From positions 32,001-96,000 of the IMG/VR virus record IMGVR_UViG_3300029288_000067: 64,000 nucleotides of DNA; one strand, 5' to 3'. The notes under the pieces were generated by a model that saw nothing but the letters and a program-made list of their open reading frames with translations, was not told the DNA's origin and did not search any database. A program made the position numbers and the translations under genes. This DNA comes from a virus. Its lineage: Duplodnaviria > Caudoviricetes. Position 1 is the first letter of the stretch. Every line of letters starts with the position of its first letter. Positions 1,067 to 57,283 of this stretch are shown in pieces.

Positions 1067-1536
1067 AGGGATATAATATTTAATTTCCTGAGTTTTCCGG
1101 TGTATACTCTCCGTAAAACATCTCCTGCGGAATCTCCACGGATAACTTCGGAAGTTCGGTAATCCACAACGGTTACAGGATCAAACTTACCCATCAAATT
1201 CTCGGATAGGAAGGTCTTTATTGCAGAATAAATTGTATCCTTGTATCGAGAGAGGTTGGAGGTTTCCATGTACAACCCATTTCCATCCCGCGCCCGGATC
1301 CACCCGAGATCCATTACCTTCTTCATTATCTCTTCCCGGGCTTTTCCTTCAAGTCCCAATCGTTCCCCGTGGGCTTTGTATGTCCCCTCGATGTATTCCC
1401 GGGTCAATCCAAACTTTTCTGGGTGTGCAATAATTTCCGAAATATGCGTGGAGGTATTAACGGTAACAATTTCGGATTCTGGGGAAATCCACCAACGATT
1501 GTAGAAAGCCATGTCATTTTTCCTTTTTGAAAACAA
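1063..1536 (-). CDS. hypothetical protein (W..P...H...LGWIR family)
   Basis: ORF; motif shared with 53698-54312; true start may be MAFYNRW. Confidence 0.65.
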   Translation of the reverse strand: MFSKRKNDMAFYNRWWISPESEIVTVNTSTHISEIIAHPEKFGLTREYIEGTYKAHGERLGLEGKAREEIMKKVMDLGWIRARDGNGLYMETSNLSRYKDTIYSAIKTFLSENLMGKFDPVTVVDYRTSEVIRGDSAGDVLRRVYTGKLRKLNIISL

Positions 1537-2098
1537 AGAACTCTGCCTGTCTTCGGTATCCCTTTGTTGGGACGATATTGGTTGGGGTTAATTCTGCAAG
1601 ATAAGAAAGCTGAATTCTCTTGTTTCTGGCATTTTGTTTTCCCTTCTTCAATTGAGAAAAAGCCCCCTCGAAATCTTTTTCACTTATCTGTGTATTTTTG
1701 GGGGTAAATAATTTCAACCACTCCCCTGGATCTGTTCGGGTACTTACTTCCCCGAAAACTCCATCTTCTTTTGCAAGAATTGAGAATTGCTTGTATTTTA
1801 TTCCCAACTCCACTGCTTCCTGAATCGGCATTTTCGGGATGCAAAGAGATTCTTCCTCTGAAAGAATTTCCTTTTCCTTGAACTTCGCCCTCAATTCAAA
1901 GAACCCATAACCCCTTGCTCGGATTTCTTTTTTCAGGATTTCTTGTTGCTGCTTATTTTCTTCAAGAGAGACCAACACCCCTGTGTCCGGGTCGGCATAG
2001 AGATATGCGGATAAAACCGAACAAGGATATTCGGAGTTCATCCAATACAAAACCCGAGAGACCGTTGAAGCAAGTTTCAGTTGCGAGATTTTCAACAT
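1514..2098 (-). CDS. DUF3293-like phage protein with Ala-ending leader
   Basis: SVLSA...EN......L...IR.RGYGF...E.S...LG.KY.Q.SIL pattern. Confidence 0.55.
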   Translation of the reverse strand: MLKISQLKLASTVSRVLYWMNSEYPCSVLSAYLYADPDTGVLVSLEENKQQQEILKKEIRARGYGFFELRAKFKEKEILSEEESLCIPKMPIQEAVELGIKYKQFSILAKEDGVFGEVSTRTDPGEWLKLFTPKNTQISEKDFEGAFSQLKKGKQNARNKRIQLSYLAELTPTNIVPTKGYRRQAEFFVFKKEK

Positions 2099-3031
2099 AT
2101 ATTACCTCTTTCCTAAGAAAGAATGATTACAAAATTACGGTTGTTTTACGTGCAGGATTCCCTTTATGTTTTCGACCTCTACGAAATTTTCCGGACTGTT
2201 TTTATACTCGTCCTCAAAAGAGACCACCCAAATCCCTTCCTTGGTAGCTACTGCCGCGTGAGCCTCATTCCCCGTCTCACAGAACCATTTTGCAAAATAT
2301 GCGTAACTTGTTCCAATAAGTTCCGCTGCCCGGGCTTTTGTTGTTGCGGCAACAATTATTATTGATTGTCGATGCTTGCTATTCAACCCCCTTATCCCAC
2401 AGTGGGTTCCATAAAATATTTTCAATGTTTTCACCACCCACCTCCCCCGGAGTAATGCAAGAAAAACAATTTTAACACATTTTCATGCAAGGGTTTATCC
2501 TTTTCATCATGGGTATCCCCAATCATAACATTAAAATTGTCGCTATCTTCCAAATAATAATTTGCTTTGGGGTATATTTTTCGCAACTCCTCCATAGCCT
2601 TGTTAAGACCTGCAATATGCTTTTCAATTTGTCTTAGTATCTTTTTTTCTTTGTCCATGCTTATTCCTTTTTCCAACACTTACATTTTGTGACAATAAAA
2701 CCACACTTCTTGCAGGGCTCTATATCGAGGATCTGAAGAAAGAATTCAATGGCATGGGGGCAGTTTAATATTGCCGCAGCAAGTATTTCCATCTTCTCCT
2801 TATGGGTGAAATTATTCATTTTTTGGGGATAACCACGGTGTAAATCTTTTCAATCAGTTTCAGTTTTCCCTTCCCCATAGATGCACGGTTATCACAATAA
2901 CTCTTTAGCTCCTCCATTGCTGTTTTTTGTTCCACGGCAAGAAGAGTCAACAATTCGATGAACTTGCCCCGGAGTTCTTCTTCGCCCAAATTTTTATTAG
3001 TCATATATGCTCCTGTATTTCCTTCAACAGT

Positions 3032-3060
3032 ATATTACCGCAATAGATGCAAAACTTCAA
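3032..3060 (-). promoter_or_regulatory. repeated promoter TTGAAG-N17-TAATAT
   Basis: consensus match directly after a terminator. Confidence 0.8.
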
Positions 3061-26059: not shown

Positions 26060-26923
26060 CTATAAAATTGTGGCTCCCGGAGTATTCCAATCCAAAAACA
26101 CACGCCCAGAAGGATGGTAAATAAGATTCCTTACTGTATCATCTACAACACTTCGAGTGAGACACCTTGAAAGACAGATATTTAATCCTGATTTTGGGAA
26201 AACAAATACATCGGCCCCGTGAGGAAGTGTATATACATATTTTCCCCCAAGGGTATGCACAACATTCTGTGTTGTTAAATTCCAGTAATTTTCATCAATT
26301 CGGTGTTCTTCCACGAATTGTTTCTGTGGAGAATTTTCTCCTTCTGGGGCATTGATGGGTGTTACCGTGATTTGATCAACTTCATTATTTTCTGCAAAAT
26401 AAATAAATTGAGTCAGTTCCTCAGCGGTATCAATAAAACCTTTCATGGCGACAAGAGAAAGTCGGACAGTATATCCCATCTGTCTCAATTTAAAAATAGT
26501 TCGTGTAAGGAAAGGATATTCTTTGTTGTATATTTCTGCATTTCGAGCATTCTGATAATGCACAACAGACAGAGAAATTGTGGTTAATCCCAGAGAATAC
26601 CACGTTGGAAGGTAGGTGTCCCAAATCACTTGAGAAAACAAGCCATTGGTTTGCAATTCTTTCAGAGGAAAATCTTTGAGATATCCCAAGTAACCGGAAA
26701 TCTCGTTCGGGTGCAGGGTGGGCTCCCCTTTACTTGTAAGAATAAGAGTTGTTGCCCCTTTTTGCATTGCCAGCTTATATGCTGCGTCAAGATGATTTCG
26801 ATTGATGGAAAAATGCTTATCCCTTTTAATCTCTGGGGTCATTTTTGCAATACAAAAGGGACAAGAGGCATTACATCGAGAATCGCCCACTAAAACATTC
26901 ATTGCCGTAACATTAAAATTCAT
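26060..26923 (-). CDS. radical SAM protein of unknown function
   Basis: CNASCPFC, GEPTL, QTNG. Confidence 0.85.
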   Translation of the reverse strand: MNFNVTAMNVLVGDSRCNASCPFCIAKMTPEIKRDKHFSINRNHLDAAYKLAMQKGATTLILTSKGEPTLHPNEISGYLGYLKDFPLKELQTNGLFSQVIWDTYLPTWYSLGLTTISLSVVHYQNARNAEIYNKEYPFLTRTIFKLRQMGYTVRLSLVAMKGFIDTAEELTQFIYFAENNEVDQITVTPINAPEGENSPQKQFVEEHRIDENYWNLTTQNVVHTLGGKYVYTLPHGADVFVFPKSGLNICLSRCLTRSVVDDTVRNLIYHPSGRVFLDWNTPGATIL

Positions 26924-36204: not shown

Positions 36205-36233
36205 ATATTACCCTAAGACCCTTACTTATTCAA
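36205..36233 (-). promoter_or_regulatory. repeated promoter
   Basis: TTGAAT-N17-TAATAT. Confidence 0.75.
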
Positions 36234-37223
36234 AAGAATGGAAAGAGGAACGTGATACATCTCTTTCACATAGAACTCCCGGGGGGATACAAAGTGCCCC
36301 ACAACAAGAGGAATGCAAATAGGGGAGTTGTTGGGGGTTGTGCCTTCAAAGTAATTGTAGAACAGGGAAGATACCACGAAGTACAACTCATCAGATCCAT
36401 TTTTAGCTGTGTGATAATTCACGCACAATGCTTTAAAGGTGTTTGTAAAAACTCTATCAAATTCCTGTGGTGTGAAGTAACAAAAAGTTGACTTCAAAGA
36501 AACCATGGGGTCCTTCAGTAGTTCTCGAATAGCATTATCATTTGCAAAACTTCCAAAGAATCCCCAGTAATCATGATTTTGATTTTTTACTTTTAAAATC
36601 CGTTCTCCCTCGGTCAGTTCCTTGTCGTCACTGTGAAGCAAAGTGGGCTTTTCTTCAAGGATTTCTTTTCTCTCTGGGATAACTACTTTTGGAGGCTCTT
36701 GTGTTTTTGGTGTTTCCCCAGCAGGGGGAGTTTTTGGGGCAGACATTTTTGTGCTCCCCAGATATTCCAACTCCTCCAAAGAATTGTCTACCTCCGAAAC
36801 AACTTCTACCATTTTTCGAACGGGGGGCTTAACGACAATATTTTGTGATGGGCTTGTGGATGTTTTTGTAAAAACCTCTTTTGATACTGGTTTTACTTCT
36901 ACCACAGGAGTTTTCGGGGGCGCGGGTGGGGATTGTACAACGGGGTTTTTCGGAAGATCCTCCATGAATTCTTCATCCATGTCCAGGTCCCCCAATTCCT
37001 CTGCTTCATCTGTTTCCCGTAGATCCCCCGGCTCTTTTTCTTTTGCTGCCATTTTCGGGAAACTCACCTTTGTGGAAAGGGGCATATTCACAACCTTCAT
37101 CGGCCCGCCCGTGGATTTTTTGTTCGAGGGCTCCGAGCGGCTTATCGGAGAAATTTGCTTGTTTGTGATAATTTTTGTAACAGGTTTAGAGTCCATATTT
37201 TCCTCAATTTTCAGTTTTTGCAA
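36222..37223 (-). CDS. hypothetical protein, Pro/Glu-rich low-complexity N-terminus
   Basis: 333-aa ORF; start probably MDSKPV. Confidence 0.6.
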   Translation of the reverse strand: MQKLKIEENMDSKPVTKIITNKQISPISRSEPSNKKSTGGPMKVVNMPLSTKVSFPKMAAKEKEPGDLRETDEAEELGDLDMDEEFMEDLPKNPVVQSPPAPPKTPVVEVKPVSKEVFTKTSTSPSQNIVVKPPVRKMVEVVSEVDNSLEELEYLGSTKMSAPKTPPAGETPKTQEPPKVVIPERKEILEEKPTLLHSDDKELTEGERILKVKNQNHDYWGFFGSFANDNAIRELLKDPMVSLKSTFCYFTPQEFDRVFTNTFKALCVNYHTAKNGSDELYFVVSSLFYNYFEGTTPNNSPICIPLVVGHFVSPREFYVKEMYHVPLSILLNK

Positions 37224-38259
37224 GGTACTCGGGACTTCGCTGCTTCAAGATGATTCGACCCAATTTTGTATCCCGAGGAAGTTCAATATACGGGCGAATA
37301 ACAATCCCTTCACGACGAAGGGCAGGATTCAACACAGATAATCCATTGCTTACTTCTGCAATGTTCCGACCTTTCAAATAATCTCGTAGTTTCCCAACAA
37401 ACAACACGGGAACTGTAAGAATACCGTATTCCTTCGTGATTTCTTCCTGCTTCGGATAATCAATGGGCTGTCCATTGAGCCAAACTTCAAAGGTATGAAT
37501 CTGTGCTTTCTTGAGTTTGTAATAATCCCCCTGTGCAGAAGAATGCCCAATCAATTCCCCACGGATCGTAGATGCTTCAACAGAGTAATCTGTAACAATC
37601 TTTTTGGCAATGACATCCAGCAATTGTTTCTTTGCGGTTTCATGGGTCACATTGAGGCAATTATTATCAATGAGAACAATTTCCCCGGAGCGTTGGCAAA
37701 AACGTGCTTCGGGCTCATCCTTCAAGTATGCAACAGATGAATTTCTGCCTTCCAACTTTTCTGTAACAACAACATCGAGATCCATCAAAATTGAAACAAT
37801 TTCGGGATTTCTCTCGCAACCTTCGATATCGTAGTAGGGAGAGACTTCTGGCAGTTTGTGCAAGTTATATCCCCCAGCATCAACAATCGGGGGATCGTAC
37901 TTTGTTACCCCGAGGAAAGCTGTGATTTCTTCCGTGGTGGGGTTTTCATTGTTGATCCCATCGAGGAGTGAAAGAGGAGCAACAATACCCTGAGAAATAA
38001 CCCCACGAAGACGAACAGTTTTTACCCTGTTTTTGTCGGAACCAGCAAGCTTGCCCACAAGATTCAATTTTTCCTGCAGAGGAAGGGGAAGCAAGGAATC
38101 AATGGGAATATACAAAACAGAATCCCCGGGCTGAAAAGTATCTTTCCCAATGACGAATGAGAAAGAGATACCTTCAAGAGAAGCCTTCACAATTTTATCG
38201 GCTTCCGGAATAGGATCCACGGTTCCAATCTTTTCTTTTGTTACACCAAAAAAAGCCAT
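37204..38259 (-). CDS. RNA ligase, DRB0094/Rnl5-like family
   Basis: N-terminal PIPEAD...YIPIDS...VRLRGVISQG, motif I TEKLEG, RGE, REGIV, LKQRSPEYL. Confidence 0.88.
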   Translation of the reverse strand: MAFFGVTKEKIGTVDPIPEADKIVKASLEGISFSFVIGKDTFQPGDSVLYIPIDSLLPLPLQEKLNLVGKLAGSDKNRVKTVRLRGVISQGIVAPLSLLDGINNENPTTEEITAFLGVTKYDPPIVDAGGYNLHKLPEVSPYYDIEGCERNPEIVSILMDLDVVVTEKLEGRNSSVAYLKDEPEARFCQRSGEIVLIDNNCLNVTHETAKKQLLDVIAKKIVTDYSVEASTIRGELIGHSSAQGDYYKLKKAQIHTFEVWLNGQPIDYPKQEEITKEYGILTVPVLFVGKLRDYLKGRNIAEVSNGLSVLNPALRREGIVIRPYIELPRDTKLGRIILKQRSPEYLAKTEN

Positions 38260-39319
38260 TTCGATATTCTCCTATATTTATTAGTAAGAACTAATATTTC
38301 CGCTTTGCAACTCAATGTACCAAGAGCCCCCGTCATGATCATGTTCGCTTATGTGCCTCTCAGCTTCACCATCGAACAACACCTTTATACGGTTTTCCAA
38401 ATAGTGAATAGATCCTCCAACATCATACCCCGAGGGGTTATCCCATGAATGTTGGTAAGCGAGATAATGAAATGGGATACCTACTCGAACAATTTCTTTT
38501 ACAGCGTTTTCGGATAAATCTTTTCTGTATTGAAGGACATTGTACAAACTTACCACAATGCTGTGTATTGTTTTTGAAAAGTCATTATCCCCGAAAACGA
38601 TTGCTATTGTTCGCATATTTAGCCCCATATTACAACATCTTTACCGTAAAAACAAGTCTTTTATTTCCGAAAAGGATTCGGGCGGCAGGCCAACAAACGT
38701 TTCTTTTCTTTTTTGTCCTCATTTGTGTTTGCAATATCGGTCAACTGTGCCAGATACTTCATGAGTCTTTTTCTTGCCTCGAAAATTTGATGTGCAGTGA
38801 ATCCCCTATATTTCTTGGCATACGCAACAAACGATGACATTGTTGAGATATCTGCATTATCGAATCCCTTTCCATCTGGGATAAGGCATCTACGTTCCTT
38901 CTTTTCTTCCTCTGTTTGTTGATTATACAACACAAGGATTGCCCGTTCAACCCAGTAATCGGACTTCAAGATATTTTCCCGGATTTCATCAATTGCCCAG
39001 ATTTTCATATCTGTTTCCTCAGAAGTAAAGAATAAAGACAGAAGACCAGAGCACAACAAAAGCAACAAATGCCTGCAGGAAATGAGTTGCAGTTGAATCC
39101 CCAATTTCCCCAATCAGATGGAGCATGGAATCTCTTACCTCGGTTGACATGTTCTCCCGGGCGCTTCGAATAGATAGTCCAAGGTAAGAGATCGTATTTA
39201 CAAGTATCTTCGCGAGAGGCAGGGGGAAGAAGATAACAGAAAGGAAAAGGGCAGTTTTTACAAGGTGTATTACTAGAGGTGTCATAGGTATTCTCCTGTA
39301 TTTTTATTTCATCCAAGAT

Positions 39320-39348
39320 ATATTACCGCAAGACCCTCAAAAATTCAA
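39320..39348 (-). promoter_or_regulatory. repeated promoter
   Basis: TTGAAT-N17-TAATAT. Confidence 0.75.
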
Positions 39349-39950
39349 ACAATTCCTTTATTTTTTGCATCCTGTAAAATCATTTTTGCCCGCCAACCGA
39401 TATCCGGATTGGACATAACATTCTCAAAGGTTGTCCAGATAGTATCCATGTTGGCTTCAAATAAATTTTCTGGATCTTTCTTCTCCGGGGGCATACGGTT
39501 GACATCAATCAAGAACCCATAGACTGTTTCATCTGTAGAAGTTCCCACTAAATATTCCCCCGTCTTTTTCAAACGATCTTTGTTTACTGTATATCCGGCC
39601 TCTTCTTTTACCTCTTCGATAACAATATCCTCTACGGACAATTCCGGCTTATCGAGGGACCCCGTGAAGGCATCAACAATAAATTTTTTGTAGGGAGAGG
39701 AATAAGATTTCAAGATCCCAAACTCATTGTTGTGGGAGGGATCATACAACACAAAAGCAACGGAGTTTTTTCCAAGTCTTTGTACATAATAAAACCACCC
39801 GTTTTCCTCGCTGCCATGCCGAAGAATTTCAAGGTATTTTTTCTTTTTCTTGAATGCCGGGGTTTTGTATATTGACTCTGTTTTGAAGGTCTGTATTAAT
39901 TTTTTGAATTCATCCGTTATTTTTGCCAGCTTGGAGTATCTTGAAATCAT
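39345..39950 (-). CDS. Nudix hydrolase with MISRYSKLA leader
   Basis: Nudix-box-like GSLDKPELSVEDIVIEEVKEEAGY. Confidence 0.8.
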   Translation of the reverse strand: MISRYSKLAKITDEFKKLIQTFKTESIYKTPAFKKKKKYLEILRHGSEENGWFYYVQRLGKNSVAFVLYDPSHNNEFGILKSYSSPYKKFIVDAFTGSLDKPELSVEDIVIEEVKEEAGYTVNKDRLKKTGEYLVGTSTDETVYGFLIDVNRMPPEKKDPENLFEANMDTIWTTFENVMSNPDIGWRAKMILQDAKNKGIV

Positions 39951-39959
39951 TGGAGATCC

Positions 39960-40250
39960 TTACAAAGGTGTTTCTTCAGGAGATTCTTGTTCGAAGTTTT
40001 CCTTGTGATAATTCAATTCCCCAATAGCATCTTCAATTGCAGATACAGCAGCATTCAGTTTATGTGCAACCTGTTTCAAATGCCAAGCATAGTGAGGAGC
40101 GGGTTTCTTTGCTCCCAATGTCAACAATTCATTTTGTAAGTCTTCTACCGGCTTCTTCAATGCTTCCAACTTTTGATTGTATGCAGCAAAAGCGGAATCC
40201 AATTGAGGGTCAACTCCCGCCAAATAACTGATTTGTTTCTTAATACTCAT
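39960..40250 (-). CDS. small coiled-coil protein with Ala-ending leader
   Basis: ORF with AGGAG SD. Confidence 0.6.
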   Translation of the reverse strand: MSIKKQISYLAGVDPQLDSAFAAYNQKLEALKKPVEDLQNELLTLGAKKPAPHYAWHLKQVAHKLNAAVSAIEDAIGELNYHKENFEQESPEETPL

Positions 40251-40268
40251 TTTAAAGCTCCTATGGAA

Positions 40269-40304
40269 AAGAGGTGATATACTTTGAAAAATATATCACC
40301 TCTT
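40269..40304 (-). terminator. 13-bp hairpin, probable terminator
   Basis: AAGAGGTGATATA/TATATCACCTCTT. Confidence 0.6.
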
Positions 40305-40741
40305 AAAAAGAATTTCATTTGTTAATTTTTTCCATTCCATACCCGGGTATACTCTGCCCTCAATCGTTCAAGATTTTCATGGGCATCTCGAAACATTTCC
40401 TCTTTCTCTTCCTGGGGGATATCAATGCCGGAAACTACAAAATCTTTCAATTTCTCCTCAGAAAATTTTCCGCATTGAACGAGTCGCAGAACTCCAATTA
40501 CTTTTTCAATAGATTCCCCACAAATATCTTTGTAAAGAATCCAAATGTTGGAGCCATAAAGTTCCATTGAATCCAGATGCAGAATAGCCCCCAGACCTAT
40601 GAAAGCACACATGGGATCAATCCGAGGCTCATCCCGAAACAACAGCATTAACACTGTAATAGCCCCAGGATTTCCTTCAGCCATCTTTGATAGCAATGTT
40701 ATAAGGTTATCTTTCATTTCCAGTTTTGGCATATCCTCTCC

Positions 40742-41656
40742 TTAAAATTCCACACCGGTTCCAACATCGATAACAACCAGACCGCTATCCCGCCACATTC
40801 GCACAACACTAGGTCGATCATCCACAACAAACACAATCCTCTTCGGATCGAGATATTTGTCGAGAATTTCTTTCTTCACAAAATGGTCGGGCCGGAAATC
40901 TCCGGAACCTCGCATCAAAAGCTCAAAATTTTCAAACCCTTGTTGTTTCAACCAATGTTCTGTTTCAAACCTCTGATCTTCGGAACGAGCAGAAACAAAC
41001 ACTACCTTCAAGCCGGTTTTGAGATGACCTTTGAGAAGTTCTTTCACATCTTCTCTTACAGGATCATTTGGGATACCCAAGAAAAATTGTTTCCAATTTT
41101 TAGGCTTTTCTGCAACAAAATGCTGCCGATGTGTGCAATCCGCAATTGTCCCGTCCAAATCACAAAGAAAGTATCTTTCGAGAGAGATCCTGTGATTCTT
41201 TGTTGAAATGTAGTCTTCTCTGTTTTTGAATTCAATACCATATCGCTCTGCCATCTGTAGGATTACAACAGAACCTACCCGGGGATGCCGATAATAATCC
41301 CGAAGAAGACACTCTCCTACAGGAGTATCCACGGCTTGTATCCGGGCAAAGGTATTCATTTTACCGGCAAACTGTTTCCAATCCAAAACAGTCTGGGTTT
41401 TGAGATTGGTATCATCAACGATTACCGATTTACCCATCTTCAAGGCTTCCTCGGCAATCAAGAATTCCGCTTGTGTTACCAGCTTTTCCAAAGCACGATC
41501 AAAACGACCGGTTCCTTTCACATTCCCATAAATCATTTCCCGGAGAGAATCCCGAGAAACAATAATGGAATTTTCATCGAGGAGCTTTTTTGCTTCGAAA
41601 GATTTCCCGCTCCCCGGCAATCCCTGCATCAAAACAATCGAAGGAAATTTATTCAT
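40742..41656 (-). CDS. pseT: polynucleotide 5'-kinase/3'-phosphatase (T4 PseT-like)
   Basis: GLPGSGKS, SRD.LR, DDTN; HAD DLDGT, SAR, DDR. Confidence 0.92.
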   Translation of the reverse strand: MNKFPSIVLMQGLPGSGKSFEAKKLLDENSIIVSRDSLREMIYGNVKGTGRFDRALEKLVTQAEFLIAEEALKMGKSVIVDDTNLKTQTVLDWKQFAGKMNTFARIQAVDTPVGECLLRDYYRHPRVGSVVILQMAERYGIEFKNREDYISTKNHRISLERYFLCDLDGTIADCTHRQHFVAEKPKNWKQFFLGIPNDPVREDVKELLKGHLKTGLKVVFVSARSEDQRFETEHWLKQQGFENFELLMRGSGDFRPDHFVKKEILDKYLDPKRIVFVVDDRPSVVRMWRDSGLVVIDVGTGVEF

Positions 41657-42137
41657 TTGCTTTCCCTTTCGGACATCCAGAATGAAAGAAGTTTCTCCGC
41701 GTCTTTCCGTTCAATTCCGAGACCATTAAGGGCAATTAAAGTTGCCAGCGGTGTTTCTTTTCCGGCCTGAAAAGCCATTCCAACTCTTGAAACCCCGGGG
41801 ATATTTTCAACTTTCAGAACAAGCTCTTTTGCAAGCCGATCCTTTTTTTCCTTAGCAGTTTCAAGACGAGAACTCCCAATAAAATTCTTAACCATCACCG
41901 GTTGATCCTTTTTCAATTTTGCAAGACTCTTTTCACCCCAGTACGTGGGGGGATTCCCATTACAAGAAGCCATTGCCCCCCGACGTTCCGGGAGAAGCTC
42001 AACAATTTTTACCGCATACACAATCACAGTTTTTACAAGGGTATTGCCCATACGGGTTTTAAAAGTCTGATACAGAACCATCCCATTTTGCAATTTTTCG
42101 TATTTCATATTTCCTCCGGTTTTTTCTCGATAGTGGT

Positions 42138-42166
42138 ATATTACCCGGAGCCCCCTATTTATTCAA
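42138..42166 (-). promoter_or_regulatory. repeated promoter
   Basis: TTGAAT-N17-TAATAT. Confidence 0.75.
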
Positions 42167-43122
42167 GCCATTATCGATGTTTTTCAATCAGTCTTTCACG
42201 AAACCTTTGATAAAGTCTCGGAGGAGATTCCCAAACATCATTTTGTATCACCATAGGGCTCTTTGTATTCTCTACAACCCAATTTTGAAAACTCCCCGGG
42301 GTGTGATCGTTCATAATCTGCCGGATTAACCCAACAAAAGCTTTCAAGCCTTTCTCGGTATCAATATGGTATAGAGAAACCCCCATAGGGTTTGTTACAT
42401 TCTGCCCTCCGGCAAACCCATCTACCCTTACCTCAGATCCCCAAACACTGTTGAAGTCTTTTGCATACTGATAAGGAATTCCCCCATTCGTCGTGGATGC
42501 TACCCAATAGTACCAATTTCGGGTAAAAGACCAAAATTGTAATGCCCCTTGAATGCAATAGGGTACTTCCCCTTCATCAACAAAGGGGAACTGGAAGGGG
42601 ACAACCCCAGCGTCCCGCAATTCCTGCAAAATGGTAGCATTTACCTCTGTAAATTCTTCCGGGTGTTGTATCATCGTGGTATGGTGTTTTGCTAAATTTT
42701 TCATATATTTCCTTTATTCTGGTAATCTTTCACATCTCCAACATTCCACAAAGGACCCATCCATCAAAACAAAACACAATCGATCTTTACCTCCCAGGTT
42801 TTGTTTCTGTATCGACACAGGAAATTCAATTTTTTCCTTCGATTTGAAAGGCTTCCCACTCTTCTTGATAATGGGCTGATTCAGAAATGATACAAAATCT
42901 TGTTCAGTTTCTGTGCTTTTCCACATATACCTTTGCCCTTTCATTTCCCGAGAATTCCCACCCATGATACTCAACTCCTTCGAATAAAAATCTTATATTT
43001 ACGCCTCATCAGAAGAAAGAACAAGAGATTCACCCCAAAGACGTGATAAAATGGTTTCTTGTGGTTTTTGTATACAACTTGTTCTATGGGCATACTCAAC
43101 TCCTTTTTGTAGTCTCCCCAGT

Positions 43123-43151
43123 ATATTACCCGGAAACCGGCGAAACTTCAA
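43123..43151 (-). promoter_or_regulatory. repeated promoter
   Basis: TTGAAG-N17-TAATAT. Confidence 0.8.
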
Positions 43152-43153
43152 AA

Positions 43154-44248
43154 TCACTTAACCCAATCGTACAAACGGTCCAAGTTCATTTCCTGCAGAC
43201 CCTGCTTCACAGTTTTTACCAAACCTTTTCGAAGAGAGAAAAGAACACCGGAGAAAGGAAACTTCACTGCTTCCAGTGCAAAATCTTTCTGCCCGGAAAT
43301 ATCCTTGATCTTTTCATACTCTGCTTCAATCTTCTTTACAAGGGCAATGAAGCTTTGCGAGATTCTTTCAAATTCTGCACGGTATTCCGGGAAGTATGTC
43401 AAAAATTCAGTGCTTTCATTTGTTCGAATAATCTCTACCAATTTTTTAGCAGATATCCCCTCTTTGATGTGGTGAAGAGCTACGTACTGTGGATTCTTGA
43501 TCTTCACCCGCCCGAAACTTCCATTCCATTTCGTGAGATCCCGAACAACATACCCTTCCCCATTGTCGATTGCATTCAAATCCTTCGCCATTTCTGCAAC
43601 CTCTTCAAGAGATTGCATAGGATAAGATTTAACACAATCCCACTTGTTTTCTTTTGCAATACGTTCCGGTTCTTGCTCTTCCAATGTTTCCACATCCCGG
43701 GCAGAATGAAGAGCAATACGAGGTTTAGGATACACGCAAACAACTCGATTATACTGTGTAACCATTTCGAACCCATAGCAGAGTTTTTCATTTACCGGAA
43801 GAGAATACCCCAGTTGCTTCCACACGTCCCAGAACAGATCCGCGAAGGTTCCTGCATAGAATCCCCCGGAAATTTCTCCGGAAGCATCTGGTAACCCCGA
43901 GGAGGAAACCAACCACTCTCCATTGTAGAAAAAAACCTGCATAAGGCTTCCGTCAAGCTTCTCATATGCTTTTGCAGTGGACAAGTCTATTTTGTCTGCA
44001 TGTCCCTCCCCGTGGTTGAAGAATTTACGCATCGTATAACAAACAACAGCCCAATTGTTTGTCGAGTCGAGAATAATCCCCCGGGCTTCTTGCACAATTC
44101 TTTCCCCCATAGGAGAATCAATTTGATTGTACTTGAACAGTAGCAGGTTGGGGTATTTCCCGTGGGGTTTTACGGCAATAGCATACTTTTCGGTAAGCTC
44201 TGCGGGGGTTCCACCATTCCGAAGATATTTTTGAATTTCAAGTTCCAT
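43154..44248 (-). CDS. T4 Rnl1-like RNA ligase
   Basis: EARGIIL, KFFN, EKLDGS, FE, EGYVV, RVKIKNPQY. Confidence 0.92.
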   Translation of the reverse strand: MELEIQKYLRNGGTPAELTEKYAIAVKPHGKYPNLLLFKYNQIDSPMGERIVQEARGIILDSTNNWAVVCYTMRKFFNHGEGHADKIDLSTAKAYEKLDGSLMQVFFYNGEWLVSSSGLPDASGEISGGFYAGTFADLFWDVWKQLGYSLPVNEKLCYGFEMVTQYNRVVCVYPKPRIALHSARDVETLEEQEPERIAKENKWDCVKSYPMQSLEEVAEMAKDLNAIDNGEGYVVRDLTKWNGSFGRVKIKNPQYVALHHIKEGISAKKLVEIIRTNESTEFLTYFPEYRAEFERISQSFIALVKKIEAEYEKIKDISGQKDFALEAVKFPFSGVLFSLRKGLVKTVKQGLQEMNLDRLYDWVK

Positions 44249-46861: not shown

Positions 46862-47239
46862 TTACTTCCCCGCGAGGTAATCAATATCTTCTTTTGTTTC
46901 AGAAGCTTTCTTGCTGAAATCATTCTTTTTCAAATCTTCCACATTTTTACTGGGTTCCGGGTTTTTCTTTTTTCCGCCCATCATAGGATCAAAGGTGGTA
47001 GCAAGGTAGGCTTCATCTTCTTTATCTTCAACTCCCTCGGGCATTTCAGAACCAATAGCAGGAATCTTTCCCATACCCGAACCAGAGGGGGTTGGAGATT
47101 TTACTTCAGAAGGATTCTTTGTATTGATATCTTTCACAAACTTATCAATTTCCTCCGGTTTATATCCTTCTTCTAACAATTGAATGTAATTGTCTTTAAG
47201 ATCCGCAGCCAATTTTGCGGCACGGTACGTTTTCAACAT
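46862..47239 (-). CDS. hypothetical protein with Ala-ending leader (MLKTYRAAKLA)
   Basis: ATG at 47239 with AAGGA SD. Confidence 0.6.
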   Translation of the reverse strand: MLKTYRAAKLAADLKDNYIQLLEEGYKPEEIDKFVKDINTKNPSEVKSPTPSGSGMGKIPAIGSEMPEGVEDKEDEAYLATTFDPMMGGKKKNPEPSKNVEDLKKNDFSKKASETKEDIDYLAGK

Positions 47240-47847: not shown

Positions 47848-48768
47848 TTACACCTTATTCTTAAATTCTTCTTCCAGATCCGAGTACATCATTGTGGCTA
47901 AATCCCCCTCTGATTCCAACTTGGAGTTTGGCCCAGGATGATAATCTGATGTGGACAGAATACTATACAACTCAGAGCTTTGTCCAGAGTGATAATCTGT
48001 AGCAAAATAATAAATAGCTACTTCCGCATCATCTTTCCAATCCCCAAATTTTTCATATTGGCTCTGCAAGAAAGACAACATTTGGTCCTTCAAAGAGGAT
48101 GATGGTTCTTCCTCTTCCACGGATTCATCCATTTCAGAATCATTTTCAGAAATCTCTTCAACCTTTACACATTTTACCATCTTATCTTGGGGGTGTTCAT
48201 CTGTATCCCCGAAGTTGAAAGATTGTCCCTCGAAATATTTCTTTGCTTCTTCCAAAGTACCATTAAATCCTGTAGTAATGGTGTTTCCATCTTCATAGGT
48301 ACATTTTACCGTAATTCTATTTACTGCAATTTTCTGCAATGGCTTATCATTTGCCCAAACAGCATCATTTTCTGGATCGATCCCCAAAGCTTTCAATCCC
48401 TTTTTCTGCAAAATCTTACCCGTATTGGGCTCATCTCTCTTGCAGTCTTTTGCATCTTCCACGAATTCCCATCCGGAGTGAATTCTTGTATTGTCAGCAT
48501 TCAAAACATAAAACTTGTAATCGGGGTTGTTAATTTTTGAGAAAAAGGTTCTTCCCGCCAGATATGTTACCGCTTCCTTCAGATCTTTCCCAATCAACTT
48601 TGCAGAAGTTTTTGTGATATGATGCTGTTGTTCTGGGGTAAGTGCCTGAATCTCTGTGGGGACCGTGGTATAGGCTTCTTTGCTTTCTTTCGAAGGATCA
48701 AATTCCGGTTCAGGAACTGCAGGATTAAAATCCTTTTTGTTTTTATCGGCAATGACCAATCTTTTCAT
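47848..48768 (-). CDS. multi-segment hypothetical protein, probable virion component
   Basis: 306-aa ORF within structural-like cluster; MKRLVIA leader. Confidence 0.55.
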   Translation of the reverse strand: MKRLVIADKNKKDFNPAVPEPEFDPSKESKEAYTTVPTEIQALTPEQQHHITKTSAKLIGKDLKEAVTYLAGRTFFSKINNPDYKFYVLNADNTRIHSGWEFVEDAKDCKRDEPNTGKILQKKGLKALGIDPENDAVWANDKPLQKIAVNRITVKCTYEDGNTITTGFNGTLEEAKKYFEGQSFNFGDTDEHPQDKMVKCVKVEEISENDSEMDESVEEEEPSSSLKDQMLSFLQSQYEKFGDWKDDAEVAIYYFATDYHSGQSSELYSILSTSDYHPGPNSKLESEGDLATMMYSDLEEEFKNKV

Positions 48769-49229: not shown

Positions 49230-49769
49230 ATGAAATATCTTTCTACGCTATATTGTGCAGACAACCCTGTGCCACCCAAAAAGCCAGATGTAAAAGACCC
49301 TACTAAAAATGAGGATAAGCCTTTACAAGAGGCATTAAATAGACACATGATTGAGCCCTTGAAATTAATTGGGGCTTTTCAAAAGAGATTTGTTACTTTC
49401 TTGTCAGGATTGTACTCTACCGGGATCCCTCAAGAAATAACGAATAAAATTCATACATCCGCTCTCAGTATAAATGACCAATTAAATTCGGTTATTACTG
49501 CAATGAAAGAATACAACCCCCAAAAAACTTCCAAGGTGTTGAATAATTTGTTTCGTAAAATAAAACAATCAAAACATATTGCTGCTGTTTCCCCAGAGCA
49601 TATTCAGGAAGTTAAATCTTGGCGAGATGCCCTTGTAACTATTTGGACCAAAACACTCTCTGCACGACAATATATCCCTCCTGAAAGATATGACCGGTTG
49701 AAAGCCAGTTTAACAAGATTGTTTGAGTTGACTGATAACTTGGGGATTCTTTTGCAATCGGTGAAATAA
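49230..49769 (+). CDS. hypothetical helical protein (MKYLSTLYCA leader)
   Basis: ATG at 49230 with GAGG SD; divergent from structural cluster. Confidence 0.6.
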   Translation: MKYLSTLYCADNPVPPKKPDVKDPTKNEDKPLQEALNRHMIEPLKLIGAFQKRFVTFLSGLYSTGIPQEITNKIHTSALSINDQLNSVITAMKEYNPQKTSKVLNNLFRKIKQSKHIAAVSPEHIQEVKSWRDALVTIWTKTLSARQYIPPERYDRLKASLTRLFELTDNLGILLQSVK

Positions 49770-51352: not shown

Positions 51353-52465
51353 TTAAATTTGTACACCCACTTGCCGAAGTGTAGTATTTACCTCTTCGGT
51401 AAAATTCCCTTGTGTCATCTCATTGAACAAATCCTTCAAGGATTCATCGGGAGACACGGCTTCTTCTACGTATTGGAGCATAGACCCTGATTGGTGAGAT
51501 GTATTGATTGCAACATTTACTGCCGCAAAAATATCCCCAAGGGATTCTGCAGCAATCAATCCATTGTAAGCATTTTGTACATTTTCTCGGGTTTGCTCAA
51601 TACCCCTCGGCCTCCAATATCCGAACCACAGAGGAAATACAACAGTAGCCCCAATGGATACTAAGAGGGACTGCTTTGCATCTTCGTCATATGTATTTTC
51701 AAAGAAACTCATCAACTCTTCGTATTTCATATTTTCTGCATAATCTCTCCAAAAATTAGGGGTATCAAACTTTTCTTGGAGCATCCGTTCAATTTCTACA
51801 TCAATTTCTTCTTCTGATAACTCTGGTTGAAGGCTGTTTTCTTCTTCAAAACTTTCCGGGTTGGACTTCCAATCACTTTTCAGCATTTCCCTGTCCACTT
51901 CTTTCAAGGAATCAATATCTTCCCCCATGACATCCTTGAAAGCATTTATTGCCCGGGGGTCTTCAAATAATCTTTGAAGAAAATCATTTTGCCAGTTTCG
52001 GCGCATTTGTTGAACATTATATGCTGTGGGGTAAATTCCATTATTCTTGTAACGAACAAACTCATCAAAGAACCCATTCACAACATTTTCAAAAGACCCA
52101 TCTGCAGCATATGCATCATAGATTCTTGCTTGTGCCCATTGTTGGGGATTCATAATAGCATGTCCTCGTAGCCATTTGGAAAAAACCCCTTCAAAAATTT
52201 CCTTCATCTCCAAAGAAACTTCTTGGAAAGTCTCTTGAACTCTTTCCAAAATAACATCTTTTCTTCGTTCCATTCCCGAAAATGGCTTATTTTTTAACAT
52301 CGAATAGGTATATTCCAACCGATAGAAATCTCCCACAAGCATTACAAAATCTCCGGAATACCCAATCCCATAATCCCCATCATGAATATTACCTTGTTCG
52401 GAATTCCGGGTCCAAAGAGTTTCATTGCCTGCGGCAAGAAAACTGTAAGCCATAATCATTCGCAT
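51353..52465 (-). CDS. acidic hypothetical protein
   Basis: long ORF; start at 52465 or 52453. Confidence 0.65.
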   Translation of the reverse strand: MRMIMAYSFLAAGNETLWTRNSEQGNIHDGDYGIGYSGDFVMLVGDFYRLEYTYSMLKNKPFSGMERRKDVILERVQETFQEVSLEMKEIFEGVFSKWLRGHAIMNPQQWAQARIYDAYAADGSFENVVNGFFDEFVRYKNNGIYPTAYNVQQMRRNWQNDFLQRLFEDPRAINAFKDVMGEDIDSLKEVDREMLKSDWKSNPESFEEENSLQPELSEEEIDVEIERMLQEKFDTPNFWRDYAENMKYEELMSFFENTYDEDAKQSLLVSIGATVVFPLWFGYWRPRGIEQTRENVQNAYNGLIAAESLGDIFAAVNVAINTSHQSGSMLQYVEEAVSPDESLKDLFNEMTQGNFTEEVNTTLRQVGVQI

Positions 52466-52556: not shown

Positions 52557-52562
52557 TACTGT

Positions 52563-53222: not shown

Positions 53223-53672
53223 TCAAATCTGGTAGTGAAAATCCTCAAAATAAAATTCTACATGCCCTTCCGGTAAGTTGTATACCCCTTTTATTGCCTC
53301 CTGTACCTCCATATTTTTCTTCAATTTCTTCGGTAAATAAACCCGAAATATATTTTTGTTGGGATCAGCAAAGAAAACAATACGTCCTCGGGGAATTTCT
53401 TCATACTCGAAATGTTTCCACTTTGGGTTTTCTCTTTTTATTTCTTTCCATTCAGAATAATGGTCCCCGGAATAAATCTTATTTCCATCCCACGTTTCTG
53501 CCTTGTTGAGCGGAATACTCTTTCCCCAAATCTTTTTTGTAGGGTTATTCACATCCACCCAAAAAATACCCACCTCTGGGATAGATGCGGTTTTGCTCTT
53601 ATCCTGGAAAAAAGCACACATGTTTCTAATATGCACTTCTCTTGTTAAAGCAGAATACTTTTTCATACTCAT
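53223..53672 (-). CDS. hypothetical protein (P.VGIFW...PRGR...D.HY)
   Basis: ORF; likely start MKKYS at 53666. Confidence 0.6.
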   Translation of the reverse strand: MSMKKYSALTREVHIRNMCAFFQDKSKTASIPEVGIFWVDVNNPTKKIWGKSIPLNKAETWDGNKIYSGDHYSEWKEIKRENPKWKHFEYEEIPRGRIVFFADPNKNIFRVYLPKKLKKNMEVQEAIKGVYNLPEGHVEFYFEDFHYQI

Positions 53673-53701
53673 ATATTACCCTTTAGGGGGTAAAACTTCA
53701 A
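53673..53701 (-). promoter_or_regulatory. repeated promoter (possible leaderless transcript)
   Basis: TTGAAG-N17-TAATAT. Confidence 0.75.
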
Positions 53702-54312
53702 TATGCTTGTTCATATTCCCTTAAAGCCCCAGGATTCCCAGATTCAATTACACTGTAGGGGACTTCAGTATAATATTTTCCCGTAGAAGAAACTTCAATG
53801 TTAAATGTTTCGGTGTCTGCTTCCTCATTGTAAGCATCCCCCAAACCTCGGGCAATATCCCGCAACTGTTCCGGAGTAAGAGTCCAAGTTTGTACATACT
53901 CTTGTTTTACTCTTACCCACCCCAAATTCTTCAAGCCATACTCCCGTGCATCTACATTTCCAAGGACCAATTCAAACTTGTCTTTATCAAATCCAATTGT
54001 TTCAAGGATGAATTTGTGGATTTGTTCTCTCGTGGGATGCGGGGTCTCAGTATCATTTTTATCCACTTCGCTATCCAAATATTTTTCAATTTCAAACTCA
54101 ATCTTGGTAAAATCGGGATATTCCTCATTTATTCGAGAACCAATCTCCGCATTAACCTCTTCCACAAGCTCTTGCATTACTTGTTGTTGTACCATTGCCT
54201 CATGGTTCATATCCCCGATATCTCCATCGGCGAATACAGCCTGCCCACCCATCAACCAAAACTCCCCTTGCAATTCCGCTTGTCTTTTTAAAGTAGAATA
54301 TCTTTTAATCAT
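53698..54312 (-). CDS. hypothetical protein (MIKRYSTL leader; LGWVR family)
   Basis: ORF overlapping upstream gene by ATGA. Confidence 0.65.
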   Translation of the reverse strand: MIKRYSTLKRQAELQGEFWLMGGQAVFADGDIGDMNHEAMVQQQVMQELVEEVNAEIGSRINEEYPDFTKIEFEIEKYLDSEVDKNDTETPHPTREQIHKFILETIGFDKDKFELVLGNVDAREYGLKNLGWVRVKQEYVQTWTLTPEQLRDIARGLGDAYNEEADTETFNIEVSSTGKYYTEVPYSVIESGNPGALREYEQAY

Positions 54313-55337
54313 TTCATTAAAACCGTAGAATTAATTTTCTTTTTTGTGGGGTCGAATGTCTTGTTGAACACTGATTTTATTTGTGTGGAATAAAAGGGGA
54401 TCCATACCTCATGTCGGGTGGGGTTATATTTTCCACCCACATCTTTTATCCCATCATACCCAAAAGATTTTAAAACATCTGTAACCCAGTCTGGGATACG
54501 TGTCCAGACATAGTTGGTACCATTCTTAATATCTTCTTCCAAAGTTTGGAGCCAATCTTTCCCACTTATTGTATTCTTATCCCAAAAGTCTGGGTTTCCA
54601 CCTTTGGGTGGTTTAGAACGTTGTTTCATCCCCTTTTTATGTAAAGCTTCTAAGATTATTTTTGGTATATTTGATGTATCCAAAGGATTTTGAATGCTTA
54701 GATAAACAGAGTAAACTGCCGGATAATTTGCATTGGGGTCATCATATCTTACCTTTGACATGTTTATACCCGTTGCTTTTAAAACATCTAAAAAAGTTCT
54801 CTCATCATTAAAAAGAGCCCCGGAAGACAACCAAATCTCCACAAGGGCATGAAGAGCATTTCCCCCACTTTCTTGTAGATGATGATCAATAGAATCTTTT
54901 CCAAAAATACTTGTTGAATTTGGGATAATATTTCCGGAGCCTTCCTCCGGATTTTCATATCCAACCGTATATAAAAGATTTACAACAGAGTTTTTTTCTT
55001 GTGGGGACAAAAAATACCATGCTCTATCTATAGGAACTTCTGAACGTCCTACTATATATTTAAACCATCCGGCATATCCCTCGGGATGATCCAAACTTGT
55101 ATCTTTTTTACCTTGTGCATATCCACTAGCAATTTCAGGATTATCAGTAAAAAAAGCCATCGGACCAGAAGTAGCTCTATTTGGATTAAAATAATCCTTA
55201 ATTCTATCCGGACGACCTGCGCCATGGTAAACCACTTTAGGTCTCCCTTGTGCATCCACCACTTTAGAGTTACCAAACCAAGCATTAAAAGAAGGGTTAT
55301 TAAAAATATTGGCTAACTCAGAGTATCTCTTGATCAT
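54309..55337 (-). CDS. ADP-ribosyltransferase-like protein (polyvalent-protein ART type)
   Basis: F.AWFGNSKVVD..G.P.VVYHG, FFT...A..YA, VYL.I.NP, GYDGI, QIKS..N.TFD. Confidence 0.75.
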   Translation of the reverse strand: MIKRYSELANIFNNPSFNAWFGNSKVVDAQGRPKVVYHGAGRPDRIKDYFNPNRATSGPMAFFTDNPEIASGYAQGKKDTSLDHPEGYAGWFKYIVGRSEVPIDRAWYFLSPQEKNSVVNLLYTVGYENPEEGSGNIIPNSTSIFGKDSIDHHLQESGGNALHALVEIWLSSGALFNDERTFLDVLKATGINMSKVRYDDPNANYPAVYSVYLSIQNPLDTSNIPKIILEALHKKGMKQRSKPPKGGNPDFWDKNTISGKDWLQTLEEDIKNGTNYVWTRIPDWVTDVLKSFGYDGIKDVGGKYNPTRHEVWIPFYSTQIKSVFNKTFDPTKKKINSTVLMK

Positions 55338-57283
55338 TTCATCTTGATCCTTTTAATTCTGGATTGGCGATTTTCGTAAGCATCCTTTGCAGCATCTATC
55401 AACATCTCATCGGTAAGTTGTTCCCGAGGCTTCGGCTTGTCCGTATGCCAATCTCCCTCGTTGTGTAAAAAGTAATAAATATGATCTGCGAAAACCTTGG
55501 AGGAATGCCAAAGTTCACTTTCATCTGGCGGGATCTTTCCATTATTTTGTCTTTGATACTCTTCTATCGCTCGTGAATCTTCATATTGAAGTTCTTCACC
55601 CGCCCCTACCGGATGCGCCCACCTTCTCCACATTTCAGCAAGTTCCCCTTCGAGGGAATAAAAAGCCCCGGAGTCATCAACATCCATAGGACTATGGAAT
55701 AAATCTTTCACACCGTAGGTATCTTCGGCATCGTCCACCTCGGTCTCCAACTCTTCTTCTCGGGTGTCTGTTTTTTCAAGAATTTGTTCAAGTAGTGCGT
55801 CTAACCGTTCTGCCTCGGTATAATTTTTCCGTTTGTATTCCAGATCAATTTTCCGCATCAAAGCATCGATCTTTGTTTTTTCCTCGGGAGAAATCTTTGC
55901 CTTTTTGCTTGCCATCCGAATATTGTTGATGGAGATGAATTCCCGCATAATATCTTCGGGCATCTCCAAATTGTGGATGTAAGATTTAAAAGCTTCTGCA
56001 TAATCTTCGGAAGGATTGTTTTTTCCGTATTCTGTTGTAGAGTGCGGTGGTTCAATCACCTTATTTTCCCAATTTCTAATAATCCGTTCTTCAAACTCTG
56101 AAACTGTTTCAAAAGATTCCTGATATCTGTCTACTGCAACCTCTTTTCGTCTTTCGGAAATAGAAGGATCATCTTTTAATTCTACGGGGATTCTTAAATT
56201 CTTTGCTGCCCAAGACAAGCCCCCAAAAGAATCTTTTTCAAGCAGATAATCGTTCACAAAGGCTTTCCCAACCTCCTCCATAGTAACAAGATCTAATTTC
56301 ATCAGATCTACCCAGTATCGAGCCATGAATTCAAGGGTTTTGTAACGATTTGATTCAGAGTGATAAACTCGATAATCAAATTTTTTGTAATCAAACAAAT
56401 CCCAAGCAACAAATTTGTTTCCATTCATGTCTATCTTTTCCGGGGCGCAAGAAGCCATCAAATCCAACAAACCTGAGATTTCCTTCCGAGTTAAAAATTT
56501 TCCCCGGTCTTTGAAATGAGATTGCCACCGCTGCCTTTGTGAAATAGACAGGATTTTGTAGTAATGCCGATGTGCCAATTCATGGGTAAGGATTTTAAAG
56601 TTGCGTAAATTCTCTGCGGTAATAACTACCCGGTCATTCTGAATATCAAAGTGTGCCGCAGCTTCCACATTTTTGTATTGATCCTGCCGCATATCCAAAA
56701 CGGTCCCAGACATTTTTGAACCAACCATTACGAGAGGCCCGTACAAAACACTCCCAAATCCCATTTTTCGGATTTTATCCATAACAGGATTTAATCTTTT
56801 CAAAAGGTCTTGTAGGATCTCTTCATCCACTCCGGCATTTACAATTGAAAATCCATTCCATTCAAAAGTTTCTCTCTTTATGCCTCGTCCTTCCCCAGGG
56901 GTTTCAACCAATCCATGTTTTCTCAACAATTCCAATGCTTCCGGAGATTTTTGTGCAAGATCCCAGAATTTTTCCCCAGGAGTATTAAAAGGATATTTGA
57001 AAACAATGTCTTGCAGGCCGCGTTTGCTGATGTTCTTGAAAATCCAGTCCAATTTGGAAAATTTATGAGTTCCCACATTTAAAAGCACATTCAACAAAGG
57101 GGGATCTGTTTCGAGGAGGTTTACAAGCTTAACTTCAATCCCATGGGTGAACTTTGTCATCTCTTTGATGAATGTGGAAATGTTGCACCGAATAAGAAAG
57201 TCCATCCTATTTTGATAGGAGTTTACCGAGGAATAATCAACTTCTGCAATTTTTTTAATATTTGAAAATTTAAGAATGGACAT
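55334..57283 (-). CDS. large protein with zincin-like metallopeptidase domain
   Basis: HELAH and TEYGKNNPSEDYAEAF. Confidence 0.7.
   Translation of the reverse strand: MSILKFSNIKKIAEVDYSSVNSYQNRMDFLIRCNISTFIKEMTKFTHGIEVKLVNLLETDPPLLNVLLNVGTHKFSKLDWIFKNISKRGLQDIVFKYPFNTPGEKFWDLAQKSPEALELLRKHGLVETPGEGRGIKRETFEWNGFSIVNAGVDEEILQDLLKRLNPVMDKIRKMGFGSVLYGPLVMVGSKMSGTVLDMRQDQYKNVEAAAHFDIQNDRVVITAENLRNFKILTHELAHRHYYKILSISQRQRWQSHFKDRGKFLTRKEISGLLDLMASCAPEKIDMNGNKFVAWDLFDYKKFDYRVYHSESNRYKTLEFMARYWVDLMKLDLVTMEEVGKAFVNDYLLEKDSFGGLSWAAKNLRIPVELKDDPSISERRKEVAVDRYQESFETVSEFEERIIRNWENKVIEPPHSTTEYGKNNPSEDYAEAFKSYIHNLEMPEDIMREFISINNIRMASKKAKISPEEKTKIDALMRKIDLEYKRKNYTEAERLDALLEQILEKTDTREEELETEVDDAEDTYGVKDLFHSPMDVDDSGAFYSLEGELAEMWRRWAHPVGAGEELQYEDSRAIEEYQRQNNGKIPPDESELWHSSKVFADHIYYFLHNEGDWHTDKPKPREQLTDEMLIDAAKDAYENRQSRIKRIKMK

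Follow-up and report, generated by a model that had tools for sequence, protein, structure and literature searches.

The 64-kb stretch of DNA analysed here (the window) comprises bases 32001-96000 of a 224,066-bp IMG/VR virus record that is estimated to be about 90% complete. Nearly all genes of the window are carried on the minus strand, and no near DNA match was found among GenBank phages. Several of its otherwise unrelated proteins start with near-identical leaders that follow the consensus octapeptide M-I-K-K-Y-S-x-L, and in the 224-kb phage as a whole this N-terminal tag heads about 25 otherwise unrelated proteins. A preliminary description of the window had listed eleven such leaders, and had proposed that they are cleaved after an Ala and target their proteins to the phage head.

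The occurrence of the tag was assessed by scanning the whole 224-kb genome in all six frames with the pattern [IVLM]-x-[KR]-[YF]-S-x-[LIM], placed right after the initiator residue. The strict tag was found at 21 gene starts, in each case exactly at the start codon (20 ATG, one GTG), compared to 0.04 expected N-terminal tags; internal matches numbered eight in 69,946 aa (Poisson p ~1e-49). A position matrix was built from the tags and used to score all N-termini in bits. The 21 N-termini, each with at least 16.8 bits, are set apart from all others. Next in rank below them are MSILKFSNI (12.5 bits), MSMKKYSAL (10.6 bits) and the borderline MLKISQLKLA (6.4 bits). The presence of near-identical leaders on otherwise unrelated proteins is thus borne out genome-wide, and we are practically certain that the tag is real and portable.

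Among the eleven leaders listed for the window, six were supported, one is borderline, one is a possible variant and three do not rise above chance (Table 1). The ART-PolyVal assignment of the protein encoded at 54309-55337 is clear (Pfam PF18760, E 5.7e-16, 60 bits vs. a gathering cut-off of 31.2). At 53698-54312, the ATG of the tag overlaps the upstream stop codon, and the encoded protein is weakly similar to the tagged gene at genome 137359-138057. For its body, as for that of 53223-53672, no match was found in Pfam, PHROGs, NCBIfam or ESM Atlas. The Nudix matches of 39345-39950 are weak (Pfam E 0.004, phrog_9999 E 8e-4, TIGR00052 E 1e-4), and the protein of 55334-57283 carries a HELAH zincin-type motif at residue 234. 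The borderline leader precedes a DUF3293 body (E 7.6e-7). The possible variant, MSIKKQISYLA (39960-40250), matches the tag only if a gap of one residue is allowed, and in the ungapped matrix it stays within the noise; it resembles gp20 of Bacillus phage G, MSKKISRLKKTA. The leaders MLKTYRAAKLA, MKRLVIA and MAYSFLAA lie within the matrix noise. MKRLVIA resembles the MKRL tag of phage G-type phages described below, a type that is not clearly enriched in the 224-kb genome (6 loose N-termini vs. ~1.4 expected).

Table 1. Tagged genes, candidate leaders, head genes and RNA-repair genes of the 224-kb phage, in window or whole-genome coordinates.
Feature	Numbering	Position	Strand	Remarks
MIKRYSELA, 5-residue linker, ART-PolyVal body	window	54309-55337	minus	342 aa; strict tag at ATG
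MIKRYSTLKRQA, 204-aa body	window	53698-54312	minus	strict tag at ATG; function not assigned
MISRYSKLA, Nudix-like body	window	39345-39950	minus	201 aa; strict tag at ATG
(MS)MKKYSAL, ~147-aa body	window	53223-53672	minus	10.6 bits; start 53672 or 53666
Variant tag MSILKFSNIKKIA, 649-aa body	window	55334-57283	minus	12.5 bits
Second-flavour MKYLSTLYCA	window	49230-49769	plus	179 aa; pattern M-[NK]-Y-L-[SG]-x-L
Borderline MLKISQLKLA, DUF3293 body	window	1514-2098	minus	6.4 bits; ~0.2 such chance matches expected
Possible variant MSIKKQISYLA	window	39960-40250	minus	96 aa; directly upstream of tagged Nudix-like gene
MLKTYRAAKLA	window	46862-47239	minus	not supported as tagged
MKRLVIA	window	47848-48768	minus	not supported as tagged
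MAYSFLAA	window	51353-52453	minus	not supported; start codon uncertain
Tagged genes within the window	genome	71345, 85223, 85698, 86309, 87334
Tagged genes (n=4)	genome	107-110 kb
Tagged genes (n=11, consecutive)	genome	129519-138057
Tagged genes (n=3)	genome	172734-174194
Tagged ART-PolyVal gene	genome	136207-136887		62 bits
Tagged ART-PolyVal gene	genome	129519-130019		43 bits
HK97-fold major capsid protein	genome	125445-126308		phrog_2522 E 3e-50; NCBIfam NF042927 above cut-off
Head maturation protease	genome	128265-129032		phrog_18299 E 1e-9
Putative scaffold	genome	between protease and capsid genes		acidic; 365 aa
Portal	genome	170562-172730
Baseplate-wedge gene	genome	138477-140096		phrog_219
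CCA-adding enzyme	window	57333-58718		RNA-repair set
Rnl1-type ligase	window	43154-44248		RNA-repair set
PNKP kinase-phosphatase	window	40742-41656		RNA-repair set
Rnl2-like ligase with PHA02142 OB domain	window	37204-38259		RNA-repair set
RlaP	window	61534-62694		RNA-repair set

In a 197-kb IMG/VR relative, which has a 90% identical capsid protein, 20 strict N-terminal tags were found vs. 4 internal matches; the reversed pattern, used as a control, gave 0 matches. Between the two tagged phages, the median protein identity is 44%. Any homologue in the relative was found for just 9 of the 21 tagged proteins of the 224-kb phage (26-63% identity), and therefore the cargo turns over while the tag is kept. 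The relative also clarifies the variant forms. Members of a paralogue family with an ..AGATQQQID.. start have MIKKYSNLKIAGA, (V)ILKYSLLKTAGA, MSILKFSNLNKVAGA or MKYLSFLHKIAGA at the place of the tag, and in the relative's paralogues MSILKFSNLNKVAGA replaces MIKKYSxLKxAGA. Because the same variant takes the place of MIKKYS there, MSILKFSNIKKIA at 55334-57283 was accepted as a variant tag. The MKYLSFLHKIAGA form defines a second flavour, M-[NK]-Y-L-[SG]-x-L. When both genomes were scanned in six frames, this pattern matched only six times: five are starts of open reading frames (ORFs), including MKYLSTLYCA, and one is an internal ATG of a two-module ORF. In three ORFs (genome 132777-133907 and 137359-138480, minus, and 179924-181648, minus, of relative G001), an N-terminal tag is followed by an internal second copy about 140-320 residues further in; in two of these three long ORFs, a conserved ..WTG[KN].. 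motif comes before the internal copy. The three resemble fusions of tag-plus-domain cassettes, or ORFs with nested internal starts.

The tag was also looked for beyond these two phages. In a search of 2.9 million IMG/VR contigs, our own genome left out, only the 197-kb relative had at least two tag-like ORF starts; of the 109 matching stretches, 80 underlie this verdict on the contigs. As a control, the surroundings of ART homologues in other, mostly smaller phages were inspected at 80 loci, and none had three or more shared N-termini. No relevant paper containing the tag strings was found in the literature searched. Neighbouring genes share N-termini of other kinds (MIK[KN]FT.. and MNYR[YH][LF]IAYLGQ..) in two IMG/VR relatives, L072 (3939-7876) and L093 (11371-13808); the similar lengths of the encoded proteins suggest plain paralogues and not tags.

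The level at which the tag is conserved was examined by comparing codons and flanking DNA. Within the tag, the choice among synonymous codons for Ile, Lys and Tyr is that of the genome at large, and the 30 nt preceding the tagged genes have nothing in common except a weak GG at -12/-11. Therefore, selection acts on the peptide and not on the DNA. A repeat, promoter or mobile cassette conserved at the DNA level was considered as the source of the common starts and is ruled out by the same codon and upstream analysis. The Ser of the tag is always encoded by a TCN codon (0/41 AGY), which fits common descent with a Ser that was never lost. This codon pattern also suits a reading in which the octapeptide serves no sorting function and was either left behind by serial duplication or recombination or belongs to the translation-initiation signals, with A-rich codons 2-4, as do the paralogy of some tagged proteins and the overlap of most tagged genes with the upstream stop codon (ATGA) without a strong Shine-Dalgarno sequence. 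However, eight residues are under purifying selection on bodies without remaining similarity, synonymous sites vary freely, and A-richness cannot account for Y-S-x-L. The tag is moreover kept across two phages as diverged as those compared above, and the different but related tag of phage G behaves alike. We consider the absence of a sorting function to be improbable.

The portability of the tag is also reflected in its cargo. With the first 15 residues removed, BLAST groups the 41 tagged proteins of the two phages into about 28 clusters, the majority with a single member. Lengths of the tagged proteins range from 96 to 649 aa, and none has more than one recognised domain. In the 224-kb phage, the domains comprise ART-PolyVal (three times), a SprT-like domain, the weak Nudix match and the HELAH zincin motif; those of the 197-kb relative include a methyltransferase, SprT and a weak match to PARP. 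The tag is present on each of the four ART-PolyVal genes found in the two phages. A portable, protein-level N-terminal signal on unrelated proteins is a well-supported reading of the leader.

The ART-PolyVal protein encoded at 54309-55337 allowed us to examine the relation between tag and body more closely. Among its best 120 of 147 homologues, most have no tag and several start within a few residues of the NPxFKxWF motif; the tag was found in only two Logan-derived proteins (MIRKYSEL, 65% identity). In an AlphaFold2 model of the protein (mean pLDDT 79), residues 1-8 are coil with pLDDT below 50 and the fold starts at about residue 11, and position 1 of the domain profile falls on residue 28. 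Consistent with the preliminary description, the recognisable domain of this protein begins soon after the leader. A Foldseek search of the model against the PDB gave nothing significant, the best weak row being a cyanophage pre-ejectosome chain (E 0.26). The possibility that the tag is part of the ART fold was examined as well, and is ruled out by the homologues without a tag together with the disorder of the tag in the model.

The leaders had been described as ending in Ala, and cleavage there had been proposed. No fixed position of an Ala was found. What remains of this claim is an excess of small residues: 83% of the tagged proteins, vs. 44% of untagged proteins, carry A or G at positions 9-14, that is, one to six residues after the tag (p = 2e-6). 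The last residue of the phage G tag, at position 8, is A, S or G. The Ala/Gly excess fits a cleavage site with a small residue, or simply the end of a helix. Internal K/R-x-A sites, which had been thought to recur between protein segments, are not enriched (5.2 per 1000 aa in tagged vs. 6.7 in untagged proteins). Cleavage of the tag after Ala seems rather unlikely to us. The tag is not a signal peptide, because residues 9-20 are polar or charged. In signal peptides of the YSIRK-G/S type, the motif lies in the n-region and precedes a hydrophobic core and a signal-peptidase site; scans of the tagged proteins gave no match to Pfam YSIRK_signal.

Although the window itself contains no head genes, the largest groups of tagged genes elsewhere in the genome adjoin them. 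Immediately upstream of the capsid gene are those of the protease and the putative scaffold. The 11 consecutive tagged genes lead directly into the protease gene, and another three come right after the portal gene. Relatives whose module is not split have the order portal, small genes, protease, scaffold-like gene, decoration protein and capsid protein, and therefore both arrays occupy the portal-to-protease slot. The 11-gene array also abuts another virion gene, since it lies between the baseplate-wedge gene and the protease gene, so the tag might instead dock proteins on the baseplate, tail or neck as interchangeable accessories outside the head interior. However, the tagged genes of the relatives lie between portal and protease, and the cargo consists of enzyme types that act in the cytoplasm (ART, SprT, Nudix, methyltransferase) and not of binding or fibre domains. 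Such docking seems very improbable to us.

A second tag of this kind was found in Bacillus phage G, whose capsid protein is 39% identical to that of the 224-kb phage. In phage G, 29 N-termini follow M-K-R-L-[IVM]-[KR]-K-[AS] or close variants, compared to ~0.5 expected, with 11 internal matches in 145,769 aa. The tagged genes of its head module are gp12, gp13, gp17 and gp20. Other members of the tagged set include gp334 (Nudix/deoxyribosyltransferase), gp346 (ferritin-like) and a gene for a weakly PARP-like protein, so that a Nudix-containing protein is tagged in phage G (gp334) as it is in the 224-kb phage (39345-39950). In the IMG/VR relatives L075-L080 and L088, almost all of the small genes that separate portal and protease carry MKRLV[KR][KA]. 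The tag is also present on the acidic protein whose gene comes immediately after that of the protease; here, M1, R7, L8 and A12 are invariant. When the matrix of the 224-kb phage was applied to the N-termini of phage G, MKKFSRLQKKAAG (p 9e-6) and MKKNSRLKRISV were picked out, and gp20 ranked 4th of 698. Owing to the intermediates MKKFSRLQKKAAG and MSKKISRLKKTA, the MIKKYS and MKRL flavours look like two ends of one family.

Based on these observations, we propose that M-I-K-K-Y-S-x-L, the second flavour M-[NK]-Y-L-S-x-L and the one-residue-longer MSILKFS types act as a portable N-terminal address tag, which is joined via a short linker to the approximately 25 unrelated accessory proteins. The tag would be read by a component of the assembling prohead, either the scaffold or core, the portal, the protease or the inner surface of the capsid. 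The tagged enzymes would then be enclosed in the head and carried to the next host with the DNA. This delivered set would comprise the three ART-PolyVal-like proteins, the SprT-like protein, the HExxH zincin, the Nudix-like protein and many proteins without an assigned function. More speculatively, the head protease might remove the tag near the following Ala or Gly. Binding to the prohead, packaging and injection are steps that we infer. Head targeting is favoured because the arrays adjoin the portal and the protease, scaffold and capsid genes, because head-module genes of phage G-type relatives bear the sister tag, and because the cargo includes polyvalent-type ART and SprT domains and parallels the capsid-targeting sequence (CTS) of phage T4. 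The portable tag itself, on which the earlier capsid-targeting claim was built, stands; that it loads enzymes into the head for delivery with the DNA is plausible on these grounds, and in our view has about an even chance of being correct. More tentatively, the whole phage G capsid lineage may use lineage-specific tags of common origin, each read by one head component, such that any protein bearing the 8 residues is packaged and injected; we regard this generalisation as possible, leaning towards the doubtful side.

Several observations weigh against head loading. The preliminary description had suggested checking whether the major capsid and scaffold proteins share the leader, and neither the capsid protein, the protease nor the putative scaffold of the 224-kb phage has a MIKKYS tag. 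Five or six of the tagged genes of the window sit among RNA-repair genes, far from the head genes. Tunturi_5 and L014, two relatives with the same capsid type, have no tags in the head module. A T4-like L/I-x-E site after the tag is absent, and neither a conserved Glu nor a fixed cleavage position was found. Between the gp20-family acidic protein and the scaffold of the 224-kb phage no homology was detectable (hhalign probability 1%), and therefore the idea that cargo mimics the N-terminus of the scaffold is a guess for this phage. In favour of head loading, the tagged ferritin-like gp346 of phage G (NC_023719 255160-255879) has been reported in particle proteomics (PMC12484599), although this one detection is weak evidence for packaging because the phage G particle proteome comprises 104 proteins including replication enzymes.

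The placement of several tagged genes in non-structural regions could also mean that the tag is read by a different common partner, such as a modifying enzyme, a chaperone or a protease. In the first case, the invariant Tyr/Phe-Ser could be the site of modification, and the 224-kb genome does encode a radical-SAM protein. In the last case, for example with host ClpXP, the tag would be an N-terminal degradation signal that sets the time at which toxic effectors are removed; both ClpP and ClpX are encoded by phage G (PMC12484599). However, neither the tagged relative nor phage G has a homologue of the radical-SAM gene, ClpP is absent from both the 224-kb phage and the 197-kb relative, no non-structural gene was found to co-occur with the tags, and it is in head modules that the arrays of tagged genes and the sister tag are concentrated. 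It seems rather unlikely that such a partner, and not the prohead, reads the tag. The radical-SAM protein (window 26060-26923, minus) has CxxxCxxC near its N-terminus and matches PF04055 just above the cut-off. Its role as reader of a leader like that of a ribosomally synthesised and post-translationally modified peptide can be ruled out, as this only radical-SAM gene does not co-occur with the tags.

A close parallel to the proposed head loading is found in phage T4. Mullaney and Black reportedly described in 1996 the CTS of the internal proteins IPI-III and Alt. This sequence, which we take to be MKTYQEFIAE, is by eye unlike the tag. All internal head proteins of T4, including Alt, reach the core via a CTS of 10-20 residues that is removed by gp21, and the cargo consists of fast-evolving accessory or anti-defence proteins (PMC3012670, PMC5694885). 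As in T4, a short N-terminal peptide is the sole common part of diverse accessory proteins, the tagged genes are partly scattered, and genes for a prohead protease and a scaffold stand beside the capsid gene. The ART-like proteins found here parallel Alt, which is head-packaged CTS cargo (PMC5694885). On the other hand, the uncultivated phage described here lacks the L/I-x-E cleavage site and has the small HK97-fold capsid protein of the phage G clade. Its tagged proteins number about 25, compared to the 4-5 named for T4 (IPI-III, Alt, plus gp24), and are mostly enzyme-sized and slightly acidic rather than small.

N-terminal sorting into heads has also been described in other phages. In P1, an N-terminal signal of DarB, of which 30 residues are sufficient, brings this large anti-restriction enzyme into the phage head, and a reporter can be carried by it as well (PMC9024508). 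The Dar proteins have no common consensus, whereas here one consensus is found on about 25 proteins. The ejection-protein paralogues gp53 and gp54 of the Salmonella phage SPN3US share an identical N-terminal 15 residues, which has been read as CTS-like, and phiKZ-like head proteins carry long propeptides (PMC5694885). SPN3US resembles the present case in that a giant phage has a conserved N-terminus on otherwise diverged proteins, which in SPN3US are located inside the head. The difference is that those proteins are paralogues and that the propeptides are at least 100 residues long and cut at A/S-x-E, whereas the tag consists of 8 residues on non-homologous bodies.

With regard to cargo, a comparison can be made with the polyvalent proteins of phages and conjugative elements, which are said to have been described by Iyer et al. 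in 2017 and to be the source of Pfam ART-PolyVal. Their effector domains are presumed to enter the recipient cell along with the DNA. The tagged proteins have the same types of effector domain (ART-PolyVal, SprT/zincin); however, each domain is encoded by a separate tagged gene and is not part of one giant multi-domain protein. Ferritin-like proteins are the classic cargo of HK97-fold encapsulins. The cargo-loading peptides of encapsulins are likewise short terminal peptides on unrelated cargo, and the tagged set of phage G includes a ferritin-like protein. Unlike the tag, these peptides are usually C-terminal, and they are read by the HK97-fold shell, whereas binding of the tag to the capsid is hypothetical.

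If the head-loading reading is correct, a simple sequence rule would predict the proteins that are injected with the DNA by a whole lineage of giant phages. Effector repertoires of 20-30 enzymes each, with fast turnover, would become readable from sequence, and the rule would point to a large, fast-evolving pool of effectors, mostly enzymes without an assigned function, that probably act against host defences. The capsid-targeting principle of T4 would be extended to a different head type and to a far larger cargo, and an 8-residue handle would be available for packaging foreign proteins. Head loading can be put to the test, because phage G is cultivable and bears the sister tag on about 29 proteins.

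Some further features were noted near the tagged genes and the head genes. The RNA-repair genes, together with a metallophosphoesterase gene, interleave with the tagged genes of the window (36222-44248 and 57333-62694, minus). Just upstream of 39960-40250, at window ~40255-40310, a perfect inverted repeat (AAGAGGTGATATA ... TATATCACCTCTT) is followed by a T-run; this arrangement is terminator-like and marks the start of a small operon with the tagged Nudix-like gene. The motif GGTAATATATG ends in or just before start codons on the minus strand at window 53672, likewise at 2098, the start of gene 1514-2098, and at ~50172. It is present in 7 upstream regions and occurs 27 times genome-wide, and might serve as promoter and ribosome-binding element in one. 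The major capsid gene is immediately followed by an HNH/homing-endonuclease gene (genome 123584-125398, minus); large ORFs at the same position in L014 (10785-12272) and in the relative (39116-40882) look, by their placement, like its counterparts. Just upstream of the portal gene (genome 170245-170565, plus), two adjacent small ORFs begin with the same 18 residues, MRQIYSKVSIMYYFSDNR, and this points to a short tandem duplication.

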